A stretch of DNA of 42,950 nucleotides from a virus (taxonomy: Duplodnaviria; Heunggongvirae; Uroviricota; Caudoviricetes), in IMG/VR virus record IMGVR_UViG_2870479586_000005; one strand, written 5' to 3'. The notes under the pieces were generated by a model. It did no database searches. It saw nothing but the letters and a program-made list of their open reading frames with translations, and was not told the DNA's origin. How positions within the stretch are numbered: position 1 is the stretch's first letter; each line of letters opens with the position of its first letter. Positions 1,862 to 31,462 of this stretch are shown here, in pieces. The translations under genes were made by a program, and so were the position numbers.

Positions 1862-3496
1862 CCCGCCGCCGCTGGTTTATCAAACATCGCGCCACGATTG
1901 TACGAACTCGCAGCCTGTCTCAGTCCATCGAGCACCCCCGACGCTGCAGATTGTTGTATTGACTGCGGATCTGTCGCACCGACAATATTGATTTCGATTT
2001 TATTGTTTTGCTCCGGCGCAGGTGTCGAGACTGCCTGCTTCAACGTATCAATATTTAACGTCGACGAATCCAGTGCTGCAGGCGCGGTATTTTTATTTAC
2101 CATCCCGGATAATGGATTAACAAACGCGAGCATTGATTCTGCCTGAGATTTTGCCTGTTCTTGCCGTTCTGGATGCCGCATATTTTCGACAGCCTCTTCG
2201 GCTTTTGCCTTCGCAATATTATCAGCAGTCAATCCAGCGTTCGGTGAATATTTACCTCCCGAATCCATAAACTCTTGATATGCCCGATTATATTCGTCAT
2301 TATAAGTTTTCTGTTCTTCATCTGATTTTTCATCCGGAATAAGCCACTCCAGTTTCTTTACGACAGCCCATATAATCTTCCCGAATTTGACGCAACCTTC
2401 TCCAAAATTGACGATGCCATCCCACATTTTTTTCATATTTTCTGGTTTTACCCACTCAGTAATTGTGCTGACAAAACCACCCTGATTATCCTTAAACCAG
2501 GATGTAAATGTTTCACGTACTGAGTCAAACGTCGGCGCGAGTTCCCCCCGATTTTACCGAGTGTATCTGCAAGTCCCGACGTAATAGAGCCCCACAGATT
2601 TGTCACTGATACATGCGCACGCGCCGCCCCTTCCGCACCCTCTTTTGTTAACAAATTCGACTTTTGCGCGTCAGACATTGTCTGTTCCCAGCTTTTACCC
2701 GTCGCCTTCATATACGTCATGATCTTATTAGCCTCGCCCCCATGAGCTGGTCAGCGAGGCTCGCCGCTTGCTTCTCATCTTTCATTTCAGAGATGCGACG
2801 CATAACCTCATTAAACTGTTTTTCCCGATCCCAGCCAGCCATTCGTTTTTTCGTCAGGCCAATTTGAAATAACATGGGATTCAGGCTTTTTTCGTTTCCG
2901 ATTTCGCCGATTTTATTTGTAAGTTCTTCAGACAAATCCCCGATATTTTCGCCGTTCAGGCCCGCGGCTTTACCAATATTTTCCCACGCAGCGTATTTTT
3001 CGACGCCAACGCCGTAGGACTTCGCCAGACCGAGTTTTTCTGACGTCTCTGCATTCATTGCCAGCGAACCAGCTGCAGCACCGCCAATGAGCCCTGCCGC
3101 GCCAAGTGTCCCCCATTTGATACCCCGCCCCGTAGCCCTCACCGCACCTGCGGCGGCTCGTCCGCCCCATTTTGCAGCTCCTTTTGCGCGACCCGTCCAC
3201 TTCTCCAGCCGCTGTTTTTTAGCAAGTTGAGTATTCAGCGCCTCCTGGTCCTGCGTTGTCGCTTTTATCCGACGGTCCAGCTTTTGATACTGAGCAGATA
3301 AATCAGAAACGTCTTTACCTGCCAGTTTCATTGCTGCGATTTTGTCTTTTAATTTATCCTGACTTTTCGTTAATTTCCCGACAGTAGACGACGTCTGCCG
3401 AATCGCATCATTGAGTTCTGTTGTACCGCGACGAAACGACGGGTCTATTCGCCCACCGAATACAACCTGCGTTTTAAAGTTTTGAGAAATAGCCAT
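1858..3496 (-). CDS. tail tape measure protein (gpT-like), interrupted by two apparent 1-nt frameshifts
   Basis: Three consecutive minus-strand ORFs (2717-3496, 2448-2720, 1858-2436) with coiled-coil, Gly/Ala-rich tape-measure character; frames rejoin if one base is added in the C5 run at 2737-2741 and in the C6 run at 2544-2549. Confidence 0.7.
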
Positions 3497-3604
3497 CGAT
3501 TTTCATGACCTCGTTTACATAGAAATTAAAAACCCGGTACGGCAGGTCCATTTGCGTATCGGGCGGGATGGCAAGTTTTTTCGCAATAAACGGAATCAGA
3601 ATAA

Positions 3605-3886
3605 CTATATCTGATGTCGGTCTTTCGGGGGCTTTACCAGTTCGTTAAACGCGGCCTCCATTTGATCGTAATCGCACGCAGGCAGTGCATATAAATCCTC
3701 ACGCTCCAGATTTGCCAGGCGCGCCAGCATTGTCGCTGTCCGCTCTTCAAGACCACTTTTATCGTTACTGAACATAATGCGGTCGCGTAATTTTGGTTCG
3801 CGAATAGTAATTGTATCGCGGCTCTCACCCTTAATAATAAACGGGCGAGAGAGCGTAATAGTCATACTGTCTAATAATGATTCCAT
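3605..3886 (-). CDS. tail assembly chaperone (gpE-like)
   Basis: 93-aa ORF between tube and tape measure genes, the conserved chaperone position; no in-frame slippery heptamer found for an E-prime product. Confidence 0.45.
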   Translation of the reverse strand: MESLLDSMTITLSRPFIIKGESRDTITIREPKLRDRIMFSNDKSGLEERTATMLARLANLEREDLYALPACDYDQMEAAFNELVKPPKDRHQI

Positions 3887-3898
3887 TTTATTTGCCTT

Positions 3899-4411
3899 TT
3901 AATATACATGGAGAATACGAGCAACGCCCGCAAGAACGTCAACACCATTAATTACTCGTTTCATTTTTGCAGGATGAATCTCGTAAATAACTTTTCCATT
4001 TTGAACTCGTTTATAATAGCTCGGCGCAATCGTTACTGATTGCCCAACTGCTGATTTTGAATCAGTCCCCTGCGCGTCATCAGTAATCGCCGTAATAAGC
4101 CCCTCATATGTATCAATACGTTCAAAATTGACACCGTAATTGTCAGTATATGCACTTCGAATTTCGAACCTTGTTTTAGCACCTGGTATTAATCCAAAAT
4201 ACCCCATCACACCAGAATCGGAGCCAGAGACTTTAAAACTGGCTGACATTTTCTCCATCCCCCCATCCAGAGTGATAGCTGTATCCATCGCGCCTGTTTT
4301 AAACTCGTCTTCGATTATTTTCATATCGACTGGAGTATATTCAGTACAATTTAAAACCCGTTCGCCCTGCACGAATAGCGCAAACGCGCGGTAAGCGTTG
4401 CTGTCTGACAT
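3899..4411 (-). CDS. contractile tail tube protein (P2 FII-like)
   Basis: 170-aa ORF directly downstream of the sheath gene; C-terminal INGVDVLAG recalls P2 FII. Confidence 0.7.
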   Translation of the reverse strand: MSDSNAYRAFALFVQGERVLNCTEYTPVDMKIIEDEFKTGAMDTAITLDGGMEKMSASFKVSGSDSGVMGYFGLIPGAKTRFEIRSAYTDNYGVNFERIDTYEGLITAITDDAQGTDSKSAVGQSVTIAPSYYKRVQNGKVIYEIHPAKMKRVINGVDVLAGVARILHVY

Positions 4412-23375: not shown

Positions 23376-24017
23376 TTATTTATCACTCCTGTAAATTGAA
23401 ATTAACCATTTTCTAATCGTCGACGCTGCAGGTGGGTCAGAGTATTTCGCCACAAAAATACCGGATATGTATTGCACACCACGCGATAATGGCGCTGTCG
23501 GGTTTTCAGTAAAAAAACGATCAGCCAGTTCAATGGCTTCGCTTTTTAATCTGTGCTGTGGCCGTCCTCCGCCCTTAGTGCCAAGGTAACGCGCCAGTTG
23601 TTTGAAACGGTAGGCGATGATTAACGGTCGCATCATCATATTGAAAAAATCTCGGGCATCGTTGTCAGCGCCTTGCGCTATCAACAGTGCAAAAAACAGA
23701 TACGGGATTGTGTACACTTCAGGAGATATACGAACCCGTTCACAAGTTGGTGGAGCCAACTCAATAAGTAAGTCAGCCAGCGGATCCCCCTTTTCTCCAT
23801 GTTTGTAATAGCGATACAGAGGCCCGATATCGAGTTCACTCACGTCAATTTCAGGATGCCCGGCAACGGTTGTACGTATCTCTTCTGCCAGAGCGTCAAA
23901 TATTACCCCGGTCCGCTCAAGATAGAGCCTCCGGGTCGAACCGCGATCATCCAACGCCCGTAACATATCTAACCGGCTTACGAAAGTTTCAGGCCAGTCC
24001 TCATAGAAAGTTTTCAT
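23376..24017 (-). CDS. hypothetical protein (213 aa), accessory island
   Basis: Track ORF 23376-24053; internal ATG at 24017 has a GAGGT Shine-Dalgarno 5 nt upstream, so the upstream extension is probably not translated. Confidence 0.5.
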   Translation of the reverse strand: MKTFYEDWPETFVSRLDMLRALDDRGSTRRLYLERTGVIFDALAEEIRTTVAGHPEIDVSELDIGPLYRYYKHGEKGDPLADLLIELAPPTCERVRISPEVYTIPYLFFALLIAQGADNDARDFFNMMMRPLIIAYRFKQLARYLGTKGGGRPQHRLKSEAIELADRFFTENPTAPLSRGVQYISGIFVAKYSDPPAASTIRKWLISIYRSDK

Positions 24018-24088
24018 AATTACCTCGAATAATAAAAACTGCATTATTTGCACAATTTATTATTCGTTTTCACATCGCAGGGTTCTAT

Positions 24089-24115
24089 AAAAAAGAAAAC
24101 CCGCCGAAGCGGGTT
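24089..24115 (-). terminator. rho-independent terminator
   Basis: Hairpin AACCCGC-CGAA-GCGGGTT followed on the minus strand by TTTCTTTTT, 20 bp after the stop of the 92-aa gene. Confidence 0.55.
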
Positions 24116-24135
24116 AGTTAATAAGTTACACCAGG

Positions 24136-24414
24136 TTATGAGGCCATACCGTAAGCTTTTTTATGCATCCCATGGTCATAGCCCATATTATATGCTTCAA
24201 AAGCATCTTTATGACGGACATGCCCAGCCTGGCTTTCGGGTAAATCACCTAAAACAGAGTCATCAACCGCACGCGGAACGCCGATTAATGCATGCCACAT
24301 ACCTTTATCATAGGCACATCCACAACACTTGTGCCGCCCAACGTTACCCTGATTTGCAGAAAGAACATCAAACATACTGTCGTGACGATGTGACTTTTTA
24401 CAGATGTGTTTCAT
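24136..24414 (-). CDS. hypothetical Cys/His-rich small protein
   Basis: 92-aa ORF (CKKSHRHD...HKCCGCAYDKGMWH...) with its own downstream terminator; weak Shine-Dalgarno. Confidence 0.35.
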   Translation of the reverse strand: MKHICKKSHRHDSMFDVLSANQGNVGRHKCCGCAYDKGMWHALIGVPRAVDDSVLGDLPESQAGHVRHKDAFEAYNMGYDHGMHKKAYGMAS

Positions 24415-24882
24415 TCATTGACCTATATCATTTTCGGTAATGAATGCTTTACACGGGATCCCGGTTGAGGTAATCTCCCAAACCGAGATCTCAACGAAAG
24501 CATTAACCGATGTTTTTGTATGGCCCTGACAGTTGGCGCTGTCAGGGCTTTCCCTTTGATGCGACTCTAAAAACTTCGCAACCTCCAGATCCTATCCAGG
24601 ACCAAGAAAAACTTCAATGAAAAGATCAAGTTAGATCTGTATTTTTTTACAGATGTAATAAATCACACATGTAATAGCCTTCCCTTTCCGTTCTCATCTG
24701 GCCTCTTGTGGCATCCATTTTTTTAAGAAACATATGGACGCCTAAAAAACCACTAATGTCATGATTATCATGTATGTTTTTACTGGAAACATTGAGCCAT
24801 CCACAATGCAGCGTAAAAAGCAAGCAATTCACAAGATTTTAAAGTGATTTATCTGGAAGACTTTACTACTAACAGTTAATAT

Positions 24883-24927
24883 CGTACCAGAAGTGCAGAA
24901 TTTGCACTTTCACAGGAAAGTGGTACG
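24883..24927. promoter_or_regulatory. nested palindrome / candidate operator upstream of the peptidase gene
   Basis: CGTACCA (24883-24889) pairs with TGGTACG (24921-24927); AGTGCA (24892-24897) pairs with TGCACT (24903-24908); lies 55-100 bp upstream of the ATG at 24982. Confidence 0.4.
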
Positions 24928-24981
24928 GAACATGTTGTCTATATTTCGACCAACAATCGTAATGCAGTAACTGGAGGAGCT

Positions 24982-25470
24982 ATGGCTACCAACCCAAGAG
25001 AGCACGCCCGGCGAGTGCTGGACACGTTCTGGTGCGGGCGTGGTTTCCCTGTTGATCCAGCGAAAATTGCTCACGACATGGGATTAGATGTTTTTATTAC
25101 CGATCTTCCTGGGAAAGTTTCTGGCGCACTGATTAAACAAAAAGATCAAGATCCAGCGATCTTTCTAAACAGTGATGACAACAAAGTTCGTCAACGTTTT
25201 TCATGTGGGCATGAGTTGGGGCATTACATCGCCCGGCAAGCATCGCATAGTGATGAATATGAGTACGTTGATTTACGTGGCGAAACCGCAAGCGCCGGAA
25301 CGCATCCTGATGAAATTTTTGCGAACAAGTTCGCAGCAGAACTTCTGATGCCGGTTGATGAGGTCAGAAAACTGCACGCTGACGGCCAACCAAGTTATAT
25401 AATGGCGCATTATTTTGGCGTATCTGACGATGCGATGACTTATCGTTTAAAGAACTTGAGGTTGGGGTAA
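24982..25470 (+). CDS. ImmA/IrrE-family Zn metallopeptidase (HExxH)
   Basis: 162-aa ORF; HELGHY motif within a DUF955/ImmA-like context; GGAGGA Shine-Dalgarno upstream. Confidence 0.75.
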   Translation: MATNPREHARRVLDTFWCGRGFPVDPAKIAHDMGLDVFITDLPGKVSGALIKQKDQDPAIFLNSDDNKVRQRFSCGHELGHYIARQASHSDEYEYVDLRGETASAGTHPDEIFANKFAAELLMPVDEVRKLHADGQPSYIMAHYFGVSDDAMTYRLKNLRLG

Positions 25471-25479
25471 CGCTTTAGA

Positions 25480-26085
25480 ATGCCATCGGATGACGATTTT
25501 AACAGCCGTTTCAAACAGGAAGTTGCACGCCGACTGAAGGATTCCCTCAACCTACACCGTCAGTTAGCAGAAGAGGTTGAGCCGGAGGACGATGAAACTC
25601 CGGTTCAGTCCCCTGATGAAACTTCACCTCTGCAAAAGATTTCGCACGACCCCAAAAAACCATCTGTCCGTATTCACGGAATAGCCAGAAAAAGAGCTGC
25701 CGAAGCTCGCAAAATGGCTGTAGCTGCGTCTAGCAAAAGAACTCCAACTGCTACACCATCTCAACAAGTCACCCGTACTGAGAGTAAAATCTTGACCGAG
25801 TTCACATCTGTGAAACAGGTGAGTTCACTTGATACCGAGCATGAGCGCAAACAACTCAACAACAAAGATTTTGAAGCTGAAATCGCTCTAAAAAAACGCT
25901 ACGGAAAATGGTTCCTGATAATCCTTGCTTGCCAACTTCTGATAATGAATGGGGTATTTATTGCCGACGGCGCAGGTAAGCTGGAATTTGAGGATTTAAC
26001 ACTACAGTTGTACATGGGCGGTACTTTGACAGAGGTATTCGGCCTCGTGCTGGTCGTGACAAAATACCTTTTTAAACGCAAGTAA
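25480..26085 (+). CDS. membrane protein with charged N-terminal region and two C-terminal TM helices
   Basis: 201-aa ORF starting 10 bp after the peptidase stop; C-terminus WFLIILACQLLIMNGVFIA and GGTLTEVFGLVLVVTKYLF are hydrophobic helices. Confidence 0.65.
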   Translation: MPSDDDFNSRFKQEVARRLKDSLNLHRQLAEEVEPEDDETPVQSPDETSPLQKISHDPKKPSVRIHGIARKRAAEARKMAVAASSKRTPTATPSQQVTRTESKILTEFTSVKQVSSLDTEHERKQLNNKDFEAEIALKKRYGKWFLIILACQLLIMNGVFIADGAGKLEFEDLTLQLYMGGTLTEVFGLVLVVTKYLFKRK

Positions 26086-26509
26086 CTCTCTCGGTCCAAC
26101 AGTCTTTCGAAAGCCCTGATCAAAGGGCCTTGATAAATTAGCAGTGCGTTGAAAACAGATAGTTATTCCCATCAGTTCCAACGTAATACACATCAAAAAA
26201 ATCACCATTCTTTTGCTCTACGTCAACACCTACCCTTAAAAAAATAATTCTCCAAGAATGAGAAAGTTATTGTGTGTATTAGATAAGATATGAGCTGACA
26301 CATCTATGGCGTGGAGCCAAACCTAATATGACAGTCCGCTCTGTGCCAAGAGCGAACATTACAAACACACTAAAATTTATGTTTGTACTTCGCTGTAGCC
26401 ACCTAAAAGTATTATTGCGGGTGGTTTCGTGACAATGTTAGATATTCTTCATTTTGAATTGATTACTGAATTAAGATAAAACCACCCGAATTAAAACTAT
26501 CAAAAGTAT

Positions 26510-27391
26510 CTATGGTTGTTCATCACTCTCTTCTGAAAGTATTTGTACTACTTGTCCACACTCTCCACATACTACGTGTAATTGACTATCTTCTTCGGAC
26601 TTGAAAATCTCACTAACTAAGCTATGACAGTTAGGGCATTTTATCTCGTTATCAAAACCTATGAATTTAAGGAATAAGTTTTGAATTAATGAAACTGCAG
26701 TGCAAGTGAGTATAAGGCAAATTTTAGCGTCAGGAATGTTTTTGTTTGAAGAGTGCACCGTCTCTGCGGAAAAATCCCATGCAGACTCAATCGTTGAGCG
26801 GCAATATTTTCTGAGACTTGAGTTTCGTTTTCCTGCGGCATACAACCCAATAATAATTCGGCAAATATTTTTAAAGTCAGCTGCTTTAATATTTTCTTTT
26901 TTTAATATATCCTCATGAGTTTTATAAAGGTGAGCAGCAAGCTCAACCATGCTCTCTCTACAAGTTAGTCCAATACTTTGAATATCTTCAGGGGCCTTAA
27001 TATTATTCAGAGCAACAGCAGAAGCATTTAACCTCCGGCTAATAGAACGAAGCATATCTATATCTAAAGGTAACTCATCAATAACATGTTTGAAATCATT
27101 GCTATGTCTTGCTTGTAGTCTTTGAGTTATACCCAAATGAAAAGAATATGCTTCATCAGCAGAAAAGAAAAACTCATTTTGAGTGTATAAGTTTAAAGGA
27201 ACGTTTTCACCTTCAGCAACCCACCAGTTACCATCATTTTTTGTTCTGACGTTCCAAATGTTAACCTCAAAACCTAAATCATTAAATGTTTGCTCAACTT
27301 GCATGTTTTTTATGTTTTCTATATTTTGAGTTTTTAAATATTCAGTAATTCTTTTCTCAGCATCGATTCTGTATTCTGGTGTCATGTGCAA
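26510..27391 (-). CDS. hypothetical protein with C-terminal zinc ribbon
   Basis: 293-aa ORF in AT-rich DNA; C-terminal CPNC...CGEC four-Cys motif. Confidence 0.55.
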   Translation of the reverse strand: MHMTPEYRIDAEKRITEYLKTQNIENIKNMQVEQTFNDLGFEVNIWNVRTKNDGNWWVAEGENVPLNLYTQNEFFFSADEAYSFHLGITQRLQARHSNDFKHVIDELPLDIDMLRSISRRLNASAVALNNIKAPEDIQSIGLTCRESMVELAAHLYKTHEDILKKENIKAADFKNICRIIIGLYAAGKRNSSLRKYCRSTIESAWDFSAETVHSSNKNIPDAKICLILTCTAVSLIQNLFLKFIGFDNEIKCPNCHSLVSEIFKSEEDSQLHVVCGECGQVVQILSEESDEQP

Positions 27392-27449
27392 TCCCTTTTA
27401 ATAAGATACTAAAAGTAAAAGCGCATTATAGCATAACACATACAATGCG

Positions 27450-27695
27450 TTAATGCGTATGCTTGTGCCCTGTAATGATTTCAAAATGAACGTTTGCATA
27501 CAACTGTTTTTTGATCTGGTTGTATTGCAACAGAATGATTTCCACTGCTCGTTCATAGCTGATCTTCAGTTTAGTTAGCATGTCCGTTCTGTGCCTTTTA
27601 AGTTCATTCTTGCCATACTTAGCCGACTTGAATGCTATTTCTTCTATCACTTTTTTAGTTGGCATATTGGGGCTAGAGTTCCGTTCCTCGCTCAC
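27450..27695 (-). CDS. small hypothetical protein
   Basis: 81-aa ORF (GTG start in track) just upstream of the 293-aa gene; start uncertain. Confidence 0.3.
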   Translation of the reverse strand: MSEERNSSPNMPTKKVIEEIAFKSAKYGKNELKRHRTDMLTKLKISYERAVEIILLQYNQIKKQLYANVHFEIITGHKHTH

Positions 27696-27862
27696 GGCAG
27701 ACCTTAAGCTCAGTTAGTTCGTCTGCTCCGTGCCAGAGCGAACGTTGTAAACACAACATTGCTTTAGTCGACAGGGGCCAATAGGCTACTGCGTACCCTG
27801 TGCTAGAGTAAGTATCAAATAGGTATTATCCATGTATATGACTGCTCGATGATGCATCATAA

Positions 27863-28942
27863 TCACAAACGTTCATGATCAAGACTGTTTTCATCATTAT
27901 TTAAGTCATTAAGCATTTGAAGTGCGTCACGAGTACGTTCATAATTACTTTCAGGGTATAATCTAAACTTCATATTTTCCAAATTAATTAATTTTCTTTT
28001 TAATTTGAAGGAATCGTTAGAAAGTGACATTTCGTAAAAATCAATATCCCCCTGTCTGGATTGTAATGCACTCATAACGGAAAACTTAGCAGATTCTTTG
28101 AACCTCAAACCGAATGTAACATCGCTTAACCGAAATGGTGAGTTCTGTAAACCTTGATTATTAATAACTCGATATTCATTTTCATATTTCCAAGAAGGAG
28201 CTTTGCTGAGAAGAATGACCCTATCAATCTCTTTTTTGGCAGTATTCTTTATATTATCATTGCTGCCAAATAACATATCATGAACTTGTTGAGTTCTAAT
28301 AAATCGATTCCCTTTGTAATCAACTGGATGGATATCTAAAGAGTCATTTTCAGAAGTATCATATCCAATACAAAATCCCTTATGTTGATCAGCATAATGC
28401 GACCACATTAAGGGGCAGTTAAATTTTCTTGCTAATGAAAGAACACCAACCTCATAATTTTTTAGCAAGTATCTTTTAATATAAAAACTGGCGCTAGCAT
28501 AAAAATCATCACCATAATTATCAACATCCCACGAAATATTATCAATTAATTTTCGAGCTTCGCTTTCACCTAGCATTTCAATTTTCTCTAATGTCCTTAG
28601 ACCTTTATATTTAATTTTTTTTGCTGCTTTCGCTAGTTCCTTTTGATGATTTTCTTTTACTAATTTATGAAGGATAGAGTTCAATTCATTGACATTATTG
28701 ATGTCGTTTAACACGGAAGGATTACAATCCAAAGGGTCATTGAATGTTGTTGGATCAGCAAAATACAGTCTATCGCTTACAAGCAAGTCAAGACTATCAA
28801 CACTAAAGCTTTTATATTTATATAATCGAGAGGGAATATTCTGTATCATCACTTTTATCTCATAAATTTTTTTGATATTATCTGCCAATTCTAGCCCCAT
28901 GGGCAATAGCAAAATCGAAAAATACTCTCTACGTAAGGGCAA
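27863..28942 (-). CDS. DUF2971-like protein (candidate defence-associated)
   Basis: 359-aa ORF in AT-rich DNA; RLYKYKSF...LYFADPTTFNDPLDC...PLMWSHYADQHKGFCIGYD...KYENEYRV motifs recalled as DUF2971 hallmarks; start may be at an internal Met. Confidence 0.5.
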   Translation of the reverse strand: MPLRREYFSILLLPMGLELADNIKKIYEIKVMIQNIPSRLYKYKSFSVDSLDLLVSDRLYFADPTTFNDPLDCNPSVLNDINNVNELNSILHKLVKENHQKELAKAAKKIKYKGLRTLEKIEMLGESEARKLIDNISWDVDNYGDDFYASASFYIKRYLLKNYEVGVLSLARKFNCPLMWSHYADQHKGFCIGYDTSENDSLDIHPVDYKGNRFIRTQQVHDMLFGSNDNIKNTAKKEIDRVILLSKAPSWKYENEYRVINNQGLQNSPFRLSDVTFGLRFKESAKFSVMSALQSRQGDIDFYEMSLSNDSFKLKRKLINLENMKFRLYPESNYERTRDALQMLNDLNNDENSLDHERL

Positions 28943-29514
28943 GCCCTTTCCCCATGGATATTCATCAAATTAAGCGGGTGTACTTAGGTCATATTGACCT
29001 GTTCCTAATTGACGATACACCTCGATGTTCATTAAGCCACTTAGAGTGCTGAGACAGATATGAACTGCAGCTTTTCGCTCACTGCTGCCCTTCAGTAAGC
29101 GAAAAAATGCCTACTCGGTGCCATATACAGTCATGGTTATTAACTACAGGGAATAATTCCACACTGAAATTAAATGTCTGCCTTTTACAGTAGAAATAGT
29201 TTCTCCAGGACACTATCCATTGCCGGGCACAATCACTCGGGGTATAACGATATAAAATATGTTCATGATAGTGCAGGTTCGTATATTAAGTTCAGCAGCG
29301 AAAACATGCCTTACAGGTTTCCGGTTTTGGGAGCGTCGTTACAGGATCCTGCGCATACCGTTCCCATCTGTTGAATTAAAGGTTTCACAGCCTTTGCCGA
29401 TATCGCCTTTTACCTTGCCTGTGATGCGTTCAGTGCTCAGCGTTGTTTACTGTAGCTCTCGGAACTGATTACAGACCGCGTCTTAAAAACCAATCCTTAC
29501 TCTAAAGGGAATTC

Positions 29515-30438
29515 ATGAGATTAAAATACTCAGTACTCTTACTCGCCATTGCCCTTACAGGCTGTGATAACAAAAAAGATGAGATCGGTTGTTCTTCGGA
29601 AATGACCCAATCAGCTCTCATGGATTTATTAAAAAAATCTGCTTATGAAGGACTCTCTGAACAGGTCGATAAATACCCTGATGTCACTAATCAGACCAAA
29701 CGAAGCACACTGGACAAGATCAAACTAGCCGTCTCTGAAATCTCCACAACATCAAGTGACACGGGCAGCACAATGAAAACTTGTGAAGGGACCGTGACGA
29801 TGACTCTACCTGCGAACGAGTACGTCCAGCTTTCAGATGCTTACAGAAAGAATTTTAATCGTAATCTCGACAAGCAAATGGAAAGCCTGTTTTTGGAGAA
29901 CAACGCAAACGCCTTTTCCAAACGTATCACCTACACCGTGCAGGCGACCGACGATCAGAAAAACGTTTTTGTAAAAACCTCTTCTGATAATCCGATATCA
30001 GTGGGCGCCGCTTTACTGACATCACTTTCTATTATCAACCCGATCGTTGAGCAGCAGAAAATCCAGCAGGCTAAGGATGCCCAACAGAGCCAAATTGAAG
30101 CGGAACAACAGGTGCAACTCAGGGCGCAGGAACAGGCTAAGTATGAGGCGGAGAAGCAAATAGAGAGACAGGCACAACTTCAGCCACAAAAAGCTGACAG
30201 CCTTGATCAGTCCCGAATGGCATTTGCGAATGCCGACTCTGATTTGAGTACCGTCTGGAGCAAGTTAACCCCGGCGAAGAAAAAAGATTTGCTGCCTTCT
30301 CAGCGTCAGTGGATCAAAACTAAGGATGCTATGTGCGGTAAAGTTTCAATGCAGGGAACAGATGCTGAAGTCAAGAAAATGCTCGACTGCCAGACGCAAA
30401 TGACCCTTTCAAGAATCGCTTTCCTCAGAAACCAATAA
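29515..30438 (+). CDS. lipoprotein with C-terminal LprI/DUF1311-like domain
   Basis: 307-aa ORF; signal peptide plus lipobox (LLLAIALTGC); Gln-rich coiled region; C-terminal QRQWIKTKDAMCG...KMLDCQT...RIAFL resembles lysozyme-inhibitor LprI-type domains. Confidence 0.65.
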   Translation: MRLKYSVLLLAIALTGCDNKKDEIGCSSEMTQSALMDLLKKSAYEGLSEQVDKYPDVTNQTKRSTLDKIKLAVSEISTTSSDTGSTMKTCEGTVTMTLPANEYVQLSDAYRKNFNRNLDKQMESLFLENNANAFSKRITYTVQATDDQKNVFVKTSSDNPISVGAALLTSLSIINPIVEQQKIQQAKDAQQSQIEAEQQVQLRAQEQAKYEAEKQIERQAQLQPQKADSLDQSRMAFANADSDLSTVWSKLTPAKKKDLLPSQRQWIKTKDAMCGKVSMQGTDAEVKKMLDCQTQMTLSRIAFLRNQ

Positions 30439-30458
30439 CTGAAGTTTCCTTCAAGCTG

Positions 30459-30492
30459 GCGCCAGGTGTTAACCTGGTGCCAGCTTAGTCAT
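30459..30492. other. strong stem-loop downstream of the lipoprotein gene
   Basis: AGCTGGCGCCAGG-tgttaa-CCTGGTGCCAGCT, 13-bp arms with one mismatch; not followed by a clear U-tract. Confidence 0.5.
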
Positions 30493-30515
30493 CAAGTGCA
30501 TATTTAACTGTTTTA

Positions 30516-30588
30516 TATGGGCGGTACTTTGACAGAGGTATTCGGTCTCGTGCTGGTCGTGGTCAAATACCTTTTTAAACGCAAATAG
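30516..30588 (+). repeat. orphan direct repeat duplicating the 3' end of the membrane-protein gene (26011-26085)
   Basis: About 73 bp near-identical to 26011-26085, including the stop region, but with no gene body upstream. Confidence 0.8.
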
Positions 30589-30612
30589 AGTATTTCCACC
30601 CCAAACAACCTG

Positions 30613-31401
30613 TCAAAATGCTGAATCAGCAACAGATACAGCCGACTTTTTCCCCATTACCATCAATTTATCCAGTGTCATACTTCGCAGATTGTCGCTG
30701 TGGATCACCAGATACCCTGCCCGCTCAGCGATCTCTTTGAAAGCGTCAAAGGTCATCAGATGTTCGCCTTTGGCAACATGGCGCATCCTTGTCACTTTTC
30801 CATTTTTGATAGTGGTGATAAAAGAAAAATCCGGAATGGTTGGCTGATTTTCATCGAGTAGCAGGCAGTGGATGTATTCAATCGCCTCTAACATTTGCGT
30901 CTGTGACAGTTGTTCTATGTGAGAGACGGCGAAGCGTTGATGAATCATGGTGTAGGCATCGGGATACATCATGCCTTTCTTACCGACCAGCATATTAACG
31001 GCATCACGTAAGGGAGTACGGTCATCGGTAGTTGTACTCCGCCTCTCTGGGCGCTGGCTAAAATAACAATCTTCAAGCTTTTCGAAAACTTCCCAAGCCT
31101 GTTCTGTTTCCAGCATTTTGGCATGGCGAGCTGCGCCGCGTTCTGTCCAGAGAATGAGGGATCGGGTATGTTTAGCAACTGACTGACTATCTGTCAGTCT
31201 GTTTTTGAAGTCGCGTAATTCATTACCTTCCAGCTTAAAAAAATGCTTTCCTACGACAAATCTGGCGATGTTGCGCTTGAAGTTTTGCTGGATACCATTT
31301 ACTTCCGTGCCATACAAACTGGCAAGCAATTCAGTAGTGATGACGGGAAGTTGGTTATGATGTAGCGGAGAAAGGGATTCCGCAGATATTTGGATTGTCA
31401 T
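30613..31401 (-). CDS. phage antirepressor (AntA/ORF6N-type N-terminus)
   Basis: Track ORF 30613-31449; ATG at 31401 has a GAGG Shine-Dalgarno; antirepressor-like character judged from recall. Confidence 0.6.
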   Translation of the reverse strand: MTIQISAESLSPLHHNQLPVITTELLASLYGTEVNGIQQNFKRNIARFVVGKHFFKLEGNELRDFKNRLTDSQSVAKHTRSLILWTERGAARHAKMLETEQAWEVFEKLEDCYFSQRPERRSTTTDDRTPLRDAVNMLVGKKGMMYPDAYTMIHQRFAVSHIEQLSQTQMLEAIEYIHCLLLDENQPTIPDFSFITTIKNGKVTRMRHVAKGEHLMTFDAFKEIAERAGYLVIHSDNLRSMTLDKLMVMGKKSAVSVADSAF

Positions 31402-31431
31402 CGCAGTGGCCTCACTTAGTGTTTTTTTCAT

Positions 31432-31462
31432 CACCACCAGCGACGCCAATCATCTGGTGGTG
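31432..31462. promoter_or_regulatory. perfect 9-bp inverted repeat (candidate operator of the antirepressor gene)
   Basis: CACCACCAG (31432-31440), 13-bp spacer, CTGGTGGTG (31454-31462), immediately upstream of the antirepressor start codons. Confidence 0.45.

Follow-up and report, generated by a model that had tools for sequence, protein, structure and literature searches.

The validated single-gene defence system Aristaios is a DUF2971 protein of 316 aa, encoded by the Lactococcus plasmid pUCCL641_199, and has an abortive-infection phenotype (PMC11381338); it is reported to block Skunavirus transcription (PMC13064643). DUF2971 was placed in the HYE clade of ADP-ribosyltransferases (ARTs); its motif I His is weakly conserved, its Tyr is invariant and it has an ExE motif, and sequence similarity to DarT, AbiGi and Tox-ART-HYD1 was described (PMC12522546). 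PDC-S31 of the PADLOC collection is one of 145 untested 'phage defence candidates' (PDC), a set drawn from genes that lie within BREX, DISARM or type I restriction–modification (RM) loci (Payne et al., bioRxiv 10.1101/2024.01.29.577857). Here, a gene matching both DUF2971 and PDC-S31 was analysed in the IMG/VR virus record IMGVR_UViG_2870479586_000005, a stretch of 42,950 nucleotides that is referred to as the window. The gene lies on the minus strand at 27863..28849, probably reading from M32 (ATG 28849) to the stop at 27863 (328 aa), and was assessed using Pfam, PADLOC, homologues, AlphaFold and the ratio of non-synonymous to synonymous substitution rates (dN/dS). The reading preferred here, to which a probability of roughly 60% was assigned, is that its product would be a cytoplasmic ART-fold enzyme of ~328 aa forming a lone, prophage-borne anti-phage system of the abortive-infection type.

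The original prediction for this DNA had described a 359-aa open reading frame (ORF) at 27863..28942 (-) as a DUF2971-like, stand-alone candidate defence gene. The ORF is present in the window, and its family membership was confirmed by hidden Markov model (HMM) search with Pfam PF11185 (E 9.1e-11), the sole Pfam family for the ORF, at 43.4 bits against a cut-off of 22 and over profile positions 1-89 of 89. Four PADLOC models of PDC-S31 matched, the best being PDLC04990 (E 1e-50, profile positions 1-255 of 259) and the other three giving E-values of 9e-33 to 1.5e-10. A profile search with the subfamily over 1.84 billion representatives (clusters at 50% identity) retrieved 25,701 clusters at E <= 1e-3, of which 345 reached E <= 1e-30. 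Judged by these sequence matches, the gene is a Gram-negative, prophage-borne member of DUF2971 and PDC-S31, both catalogued before. The remark that the function of the family is unknown has become outdated with its publication as a predicted ADP-ribosyltransferase (PMC12522546).

The length of 359 aa was discarded as the product of a mechanical TTG start. Since homologues measure 310-330 aa, the PADLOC profile begins at residue 32 and a promoter-like site falls inside the extension, the true start is probably M32 (ATG at 28849), with a product of 328 aa. Gene calls of close homologues begin at the M32 equivalent; the sequence collection's own gene call for this protein starts at M15 and gives 345 aa. 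The promoter-like site inside the supposed N-terminal extension is a sigma-70-like TTGCCC-N18-GATAAT at 28906-28877, obtained from a promoter scan in which the number of sites in the region was not above chance. The orthologous modules of Serratia and Edaphovirga retain both hexamers, and those of Kosakonia (L015; fetched loci are numbered with L) and Pectobacterium (L016) have the variant TTGTCC in place of TTGCCC. From the promoter scan, orthologue comparison and gene calls, the upstream extension of the mechanical ORF (28850..28942, -) is most likely an untranslated leader and promoter.

Structure prediction, which had been proposed as a check on the gene, gave a confident AlphaFold2 model with an ART-like fold, and alignments gave invariant candidate active-site residues. 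The model was built on 63 homologues and had a mean predicted local distance difference test (pLDDT) of 89.6 and a predicted template modelling (pTM) score of 0.82. As modelled, the fold is ART-like and nearest to DarT and Tpt1. About 101-138 residues of the model align, and the remainder consists of a helical insert at 53-129 (~75 residues), a second insert at 186-214 and a C-terminal domain at 250-328. A profile search of all PDB sequences returned no match, with no DarT chain even at E 10, and Foldseek against the PDB gave nothing significant, the best match being an ART at E 0.63; on the modelled structure the ART resemblance is at fold level only. Conservation was read from two alignments, A1 with 63 close sequences and A3 with 48 divergent sequences at 26-39% identity. 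Invariant in A1 and A3 were N37 and D38, G135, W149, H151, Y152, H156 and G158, Y178, K216, and Y222, E223, E225 and R227 in the arrangement YExExR, and almost invariant were Y10, K11 and S150. The candidates for the motif II Tyr (Y152) and the motif III Glu of the ExE motif (E223 and E225) were invariant and agree with the published description of the family (PMC12522546).

The neighbourhood of the gene was compared across 80 fetched genome loci of relatives (34-86% identity) and a Serratia locus, 81 in total; several further loci were retrieved by exact look-up. The claim that the gene sits alone held in that no partner gene is conserved in these loci, and failed in that the AT-rich block also holds two co-directional ORFs of 81 aa and 291 aa. 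Neither of these two ORFs was detected within 6 kb of the relatives by tblastn in the 81 loci, and clustering revealed no ORF family within 3.5 kb of the gene in more than 7 of the 81. The two ORFs accompany the gene in this prophage lineage alone. In the reverse test, 88 loci of the 291-aa family shared no neighbour, and a distant DUF2971 gene was near one of them only (L118). Pfam and PADLOC searches found no macrodomain or other antitoxin-like domain in the window neighbours. The DUF2971 gene is the sole ORF of elements of 1.42-1.49 kb in three genera (L005, L015 and L019), bounded by terminal inverted repeats (TIRs) and target-site duplications. Given the lack of a conserved partner and the absence of the downstream ORFs from the 81 loci, the gene was taken to be a self-sufficient unit.

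Close homologues were 328 aa long and 83-86% identical. The dN/dS values (Nei–Gojobori) were 0.16-0.19 for the window gene against the Serratia, Kosakonia and Pectobacterium orthologues and 0.14-0.19 across all six pairs; ratios this low indicate purifying selection on the protein. The Edaphovirga copy (L019 6001-6985) has a frameshift near codon 168, and the Kosakonia copy (L015 6001-6987) is interrupted by a stop at codon 320; decay or truncation has thus affected some of the transposon-borne copies. A selfish toxin that stabilises its mobile element, restrained by an unrecognised antitoxin such as a small RNA or the structured repeat RNA and bringing no anti-phage benefit, would accord with the constant location of the gene on mobile DNA and with the strongly structured flanking repeats, and the damage in L019 and L015 fits a costly gene. 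Such a toxin was nevertheless judged very unlikely, given that there is no conserved ORF neighbour, that an Rfam search over 24000-31000 gave no match, that purifying selection extends across genera and that a DUF2971 gene is already known to act on its own against phages.

The window is a lambdoid E. coli prophage, with positions 1-24000 being 99% identical to E. coli prophages with terminase, portal and tail-sheath genes. The gene order near the ORF is DnaB-type helicase, small ORFs, ORF6N antirepressor, LprI, the insert, a 201-aa membrane protein, ImmA/IrrE, DUF1367, YbcO and antiterminator Q. Homology to the prophage of E. coli SK1144 ends at 26357 and restarts at 29075, which makes 26358-29074 a slot for variable accessory DNA within the early-right ('nin-like') region; at the same slot, SK1144 has a different 1.6-kb segment encoding a 232-aa protein. 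The 2.7-kb insert at 26358-29074 sets the prophage apart from its E. coli relatives. The flank 29075-29500 was found at ~97% identity in 449 of 5,426 complete E. coli genomes, and at the DNA level the DUF2971 gene and the two downstream ORFs were absent from all 449. Contigs with an identical copy of the protein came solely from Logan assemblies of sequencing runs; the 11 that were read hold the same prophage. The low GC content noted originally was borne out, 28001-29000 having the minimum 1-kb value (0.332) of the whole 42.9-kb window and the DUF2971 gene alone being 31.8% GC, as was the divergent orientation of the ORF and the LprI lipoprotein gene (29515..30438, +).

The description as a candidate defence gene is supported by the full-length PDC-S31 match, the Aristaios precedent and the genomic context, which together point to a possible defence role. 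The Serratia homologue adjoins type I RM hsdR, RadC and a resolvase; the Dickeya homologue lies inside an integrative and conjugative element (ICE), next to AbiEi_4 and DNA-modification genes; and the Citrobacter homologue is in an insertion sequence (IS)-rich islet near AIPR. In Pectobacterium, the vehicle of the gene also carries a DUF4238 gene (Pfam E 2e-37), a member of a family that protects against T7 (bioRxiv 10.1101/2021.01.21.427644). The window gene itself occupies a variable lambdoid-prophage slot where E. coli relatives hold another gene. Homologues were also found in 50 IMG/VR viral contigs, and distant DUF2971 relatives in SSU5-like phage-plasmids and other phages. These phage occurrences, and the location of the gene in the nin-like region on the strand of the early-right operon (replication genes to Q), would suit a gene that benefits the phage, either as an early ART that remodels host machinery or marks DNA in lytic growth, like T4 Alt, ModA and ModB, or as an anti-defence factor. 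A benefit to the phage was considered quite unlikely in view of the close homologues in non-phage places (the ICE, the type I RM island and chromosomal islets) and of those that are sole cargo of tiny transposon-like elements; moreover, the module has its own conserved promoter-like region and related prophages manage without the gene. A secreted or translocated virulence effector, as proposed for Legionella lpg1268, is a role predicted for a minority (~18%) of DUF2971 proteins (PMC12522546). For the window protein this is hardly credible, as there is no signal peptide or secretion-system context, the gene is in a prophage accessory slot and the subfamily, which occurs in proteobacteria from soil, plants and the gut, shows no association with a host.

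According to the preferred reading, a lone anti-phage ART, the gene's own promoter would drive protein production in the lysogen, and the protein would be held inactive by its non-catalytic parts, i.e. the helical insert 53-129, the insert 186-214 and the C-terminal domain 250-328, until an incoming phage frees it. The freed protein would then perform ADP-ribosylation of nucleic acid dependent on nicotinamide adenine dinucleotide (NAD+), with DNA as the first guess for the target, like DarT, and RNA ends as the second, like Tpt1. The modification would halt phage (and host) transcription or replication and so abort the infection. We infer the use of NAD+, the target, the auto-inhibition, the trigger and the defence phenotype. 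A protein with the same fold and a defence role could instead be an NAD+ glycohydrolase or an ART acting on protein (RNA polymerase or a translation factor), in which case depletion of NAD+ or modification of proteins, rather than of nucleic acid, would account for abortive infection; this variant was regarded as unlikely.

Several points weigh against the lone anti-phage ART. The gene runs in the same direction as the early-right operon of the prophage, and lytic rather than lysogenic expression is possible. The transposon-like vehicle described below also carries non-defence cargo, e.g. GrpB and DUF4440. The PDC systems are expressly presented as candidates yet to be tested (bioRxiv 10.1101/2024.01.29.577857), and Aristaios was out of tblastn reach, with no Lactococcus record among 636 plasmid matches at E <= 0.01. 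Strand 1 of the model (residues 8-13) has Y10-K11-Y12 and no clear motif I His or Arg. The motif assignment of Y152, E223 and E225 follows from their order along the fold and the published description, and the residues assigned to the NAD+ pocket are candidates.

The DUF2971 gene belongs to a portable module comprising the upstream region, the gene and 138 nt downstream (27725..29081, 1,357 bp, -), which was delimited by blastn of 26001-29600 against the fetched loci and shows 85-88% nucleotide identity with Serratia, Kosakonia, Pectobacterium, Dickeya and Edaphovirga. Orthologous modules sit in elements of 1.4-2.6 kb in Serratia, Kosakonia, Edaphovirga and Pectobacterium. Their TIR of ~100 nt has the tip TGTATTAGCTCAGAC, two ATCTGACAG boxes and an inner hairpin TGGCACAGAGC...GCTCTGTGCCA. 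The elements of Serratia (L005 5701-7185), Kosakonia (L015 5767-7186) and Edaphovirga (L019 5702-7191) contain DUF2971 only and are flanked by exact 7-bp duplications (TTTTAAC, AATAATT and AATCATG, respectively), and the Pectobacterium element (L016 5702-8292) contains DUF2971 and DUF4238, with a duplication matching at 6/7 positions. Other cargo was found in a 2.2-kb element of E. coli ij001 beside a prophage integrase (L182 ~1867-4081; AbiU/AIPR, PADLOC AbiU E 2.6e-111; exact duplication CGTTACT) and in a 1.3-kb element of a phage contig, which adjoins another DUF2971 gene and carries an unknown 331-aa gene (L190 5933-7244; exact duplication ATTAAGC). Plasmid elements of 0.5-2.5 kb from Yersinia, Klebsiella, Citrobacter and Edwardsiella (L235-L238) contain a 66-aa ORF, GrpB with DUF4440, a 143-aa ORF, and a 257-aa ORF with an IS; the duplication is exact in L238 (GGTTATG), 6/7 in L235, and 7 or 8 bp in L236 and L237 depending on tip placement.

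No transposase ORF was present in the five complete chromosomal elements (L005, L015, L016, L019 and L182), and L238, the only copy with a transposase inside, has the IS256-like ISEic2 inserted as a passenger. IS66 was dismissed as the parent of the repeat, since in the plasmid copy L184 it is inserted into the element tip, and integron attC sites were dismissed because the junctions, inspected by eye, were without GTTRRRY / RYYYAAC core sites. The idea of a defence-specific vehicle was likewise abandoned: the plasmid copies carry GrpB and DUF4440 and small unknown ORFs, and gave no PADLOC matches. With cargo this mixed, riding the vehicle is not by itself evidence of defence. A literature search for the tip TGTATTAGCTCAG returned nothing relevant. 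The repeat was detected 1-4 times per genome in ~2,100-2,300 of the 5,426 complete E. coli genomes (~40%) and also in 132 plasmids. In E. coli B/C43(DE3), between gltD and nanQ (L181 3695-4073), one repeat end comes directly after a 101-aa ORF annotated as 'transposase' in RefSeq, which had no NCBIfam match; this locus explains many of the repeat matches of 80-90% identity in E. coli.

In the window, a complete copy of the terminal repeat at 26275..26367 (-; nhmmer E 4e-22 and 1.4e-24), with its tip ...ATCTAATACA at 26275, closes the two-gene insert. This end aligns with the Serratia, Kosakonia, Edaphovirga and Pectobacterium ends and is also found in the E. coli SK1144-type prophage. Junction J-C (29051..29110) is a hairpin with arms at 29067-29084 and 29093-29110 that contains the inner part of a 5' end, GTGAGCGA..., and is located exactly where homology to the E. 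coli prophage backbone restarts (29075). Junction J-B (27677..27755), between the DUF2971 module and the module of the 81-aa and 291-aa ORFs, contains the direct repeats D2, D3 and D7 and gave weak nhmmer matches (E 3e-4 and 0.011); in it, the inner portions of a 3' and a 5' end are joined into a hairpin, and it aligns with J-C. From their sequence, J-B and J-C may be collapsed tip-to-tip junctions of successive insertions. The gene is not flanked by two TIRs in the window, which has the complete repeat at 26275-26367 and inner fragments only at 27677-27755 and 29051-29110. With one end missing, a target-site duplication is unreadable in the window, and with one complete end and two internal junctions only, the window copy is no longer a mobile unit.

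The elements support the view of the DUF2971 gene as a portable, self-contained unit. Tentatively, and with slightly more doubt than confidence, we propose that undescribed, non-autonomous elements of the Enterobacterales shuttle single small genes (AbiU, DUF4238, DUF2971) among prophages, ICEs, plasmids and chromosomes, that they build arrays by tip-to-tip insertion and palindrome collapse, and that their repeat might serve as a beacon for one-gene defence systems. The DUF2971 gene paired with the HEPN/zinc-ribbon gene in this prophage would be an example of such an array.

Downstream in the same insert, the 291-aa gene (26510..27385, -) encodes a protein that combines an alpha/beta domain at the N-terminus with a HEPN-like helical domain and, at the C-terminus, a CxxC...CxxC zinc ribbon; the gene has its own extended -10 promoter-like site. 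The 81-aa ORF (27450..27695, -) has a GTG start, begins inside the J-B hairpin and is of doubtful coding status. It gave no Pfam or PADLOC match; this prophage lineage (L002-L004) was the only source of complete copies, and the sole match elsewhere was to a 26-residue fragment (L101). The ORF is probably not a gene. A three-gene operon of DUF2971 with the 81-aa and 291-aa ORFs was rejected, as the downstream ORFs are absent from 81/81 homologous loci and the 88 loci of the 291-aa family are without a conserved neighbour. The 291-aa protein was also rejected as partner or antitoxin of the ART, there being no consistent association and the fold being HEPN-like, not that of a macrodomain or glycohydrolase; the gene is an independent passenger, not a DUF2971 partner. 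A Vibrio homologue of the 291-aa protein (L011 5001-6560) adjoins an ADPrib_exo_Tox gene (Pfam E 4.5e-10), and one on a metagenome contig (L118 5001-7339) has a distant DUF2971 gene ~600 bp away (HMM E 4.5e-20). Placement of the 291-aa homologue beside ART-type genes is too rare among the 88 loci to be called an association.

On the other side of the insert, the LprI-family lipoprotein gene (29515..30438, +; Pfam LprI E 3.2e-7) is part of the context and is conserved in E. coli relatives. Its protein begins MRLKYSVLLLAIALTGC, which includes the lipobox LTGC. An 81-nt direct repeat of 90% identity (26004-26084 and 30507-30587) consists of the 3' end of the 201-aa gene, duplicated just downstream of LprI; it brackets the insert and LprI (4.5 kb) and may be a recombination scar. 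The ORF6N-domain (antirepressor-like) protein (30613-31449, -) also matches PADLOC PDC-S05 models (E ~1e-9). The occupant of the SK1144 slot (L001 10554-11252) is the hypothetical protein WP_000536231.1, with a weak PADLOC match to RTasTM (DRT-associated membrane protein; E 1.8e-5), and its segment begins with the shared GTGAGCGAGGAAC junction motif and ends at the shared terminal repeat. The module of ImmA/IrrE (24982-25470) and the 201-aa membrane protein (25480-26085), spanning 24209-26196, is absent as a unit from L004, a prophage variant that is otherwise nearly identical. PADLOC models of capP (E 2.4e-25) and RmrA match the ImmA/IrrE protein, and no cyclic-oligonucleotide-based anti-phage signalling system (CBASS) is present; the module may be a further accessory or regulatory cassette.

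Confirmation of its function would make the DUF2971 protein the first Gram-negative member of a very large family to be characterised. In that case, the family would be one of antitoxin-free, DarT-like ART toxins, raising the question of how a lone ART is restrained and which phage cue frees it. Its small size, own promoter and E. coli origin make the gene amenable to direct tests. The most novel observation is the transposon-like vehicle, the DUF2971 candidate itself having been catalogued already. An element without transposase that is shared by DUF2971, AbiU and DUF4238 suggests a route for the horizontal spread of one-gene immune systems, and the repeat may be a sequence handle for discovering more of them, for which the unrelated cargo calls for proper statistics.

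Mobile insertion cassettes and cargo-bearing miniature inverted-repeat transposable elements (MITEs) are non-autonomous IS derivatives. The orthologous DUF2971 modules resemble them in having TIRs of ~100 nt and 7-bp duplications and in being without transposase; the window copy differs from them, with one complete end and two internal junctions. With PDC-S31, the window gene shares a full-length HMM match, a single-gene architecture without obligatory partner and, in the close homologue beside type I RM hsdR, the kind of association that the PDC systems came from. PDC-S31 was predicted by guilt-by-embedding, whereas the window copy lies in a prophage accessory slot and not in BREX, DISARM or RM.

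Aristaios likewise consists of a solitary DUF2971 gene, with 316 aa compared with 328 aa here, but is Gram-positive and plasmid-borne. In contrast to DarT, the window protein has no DUF4433 match in Pfam and no match to DarT in the PDB profile search, and DarT is without its two large helical inserts and its C-terminal domain; on strand 1, the window protein would have a K in the place of the motif I His of DarT. Unlike in DarTG, no DarG macrodomain gene adjoins the window gene or is conserved in the 81 loci. The RNA 2'-phosphotransferase Tpt1/KptA differs in giving no sequence match, and its R-H-R-R catalytic tetrad is not evident among the invariant residues. Among these systems, the window gene would work most like Aristaios and would chemically be most like DarT, without being a member of the DarT family.

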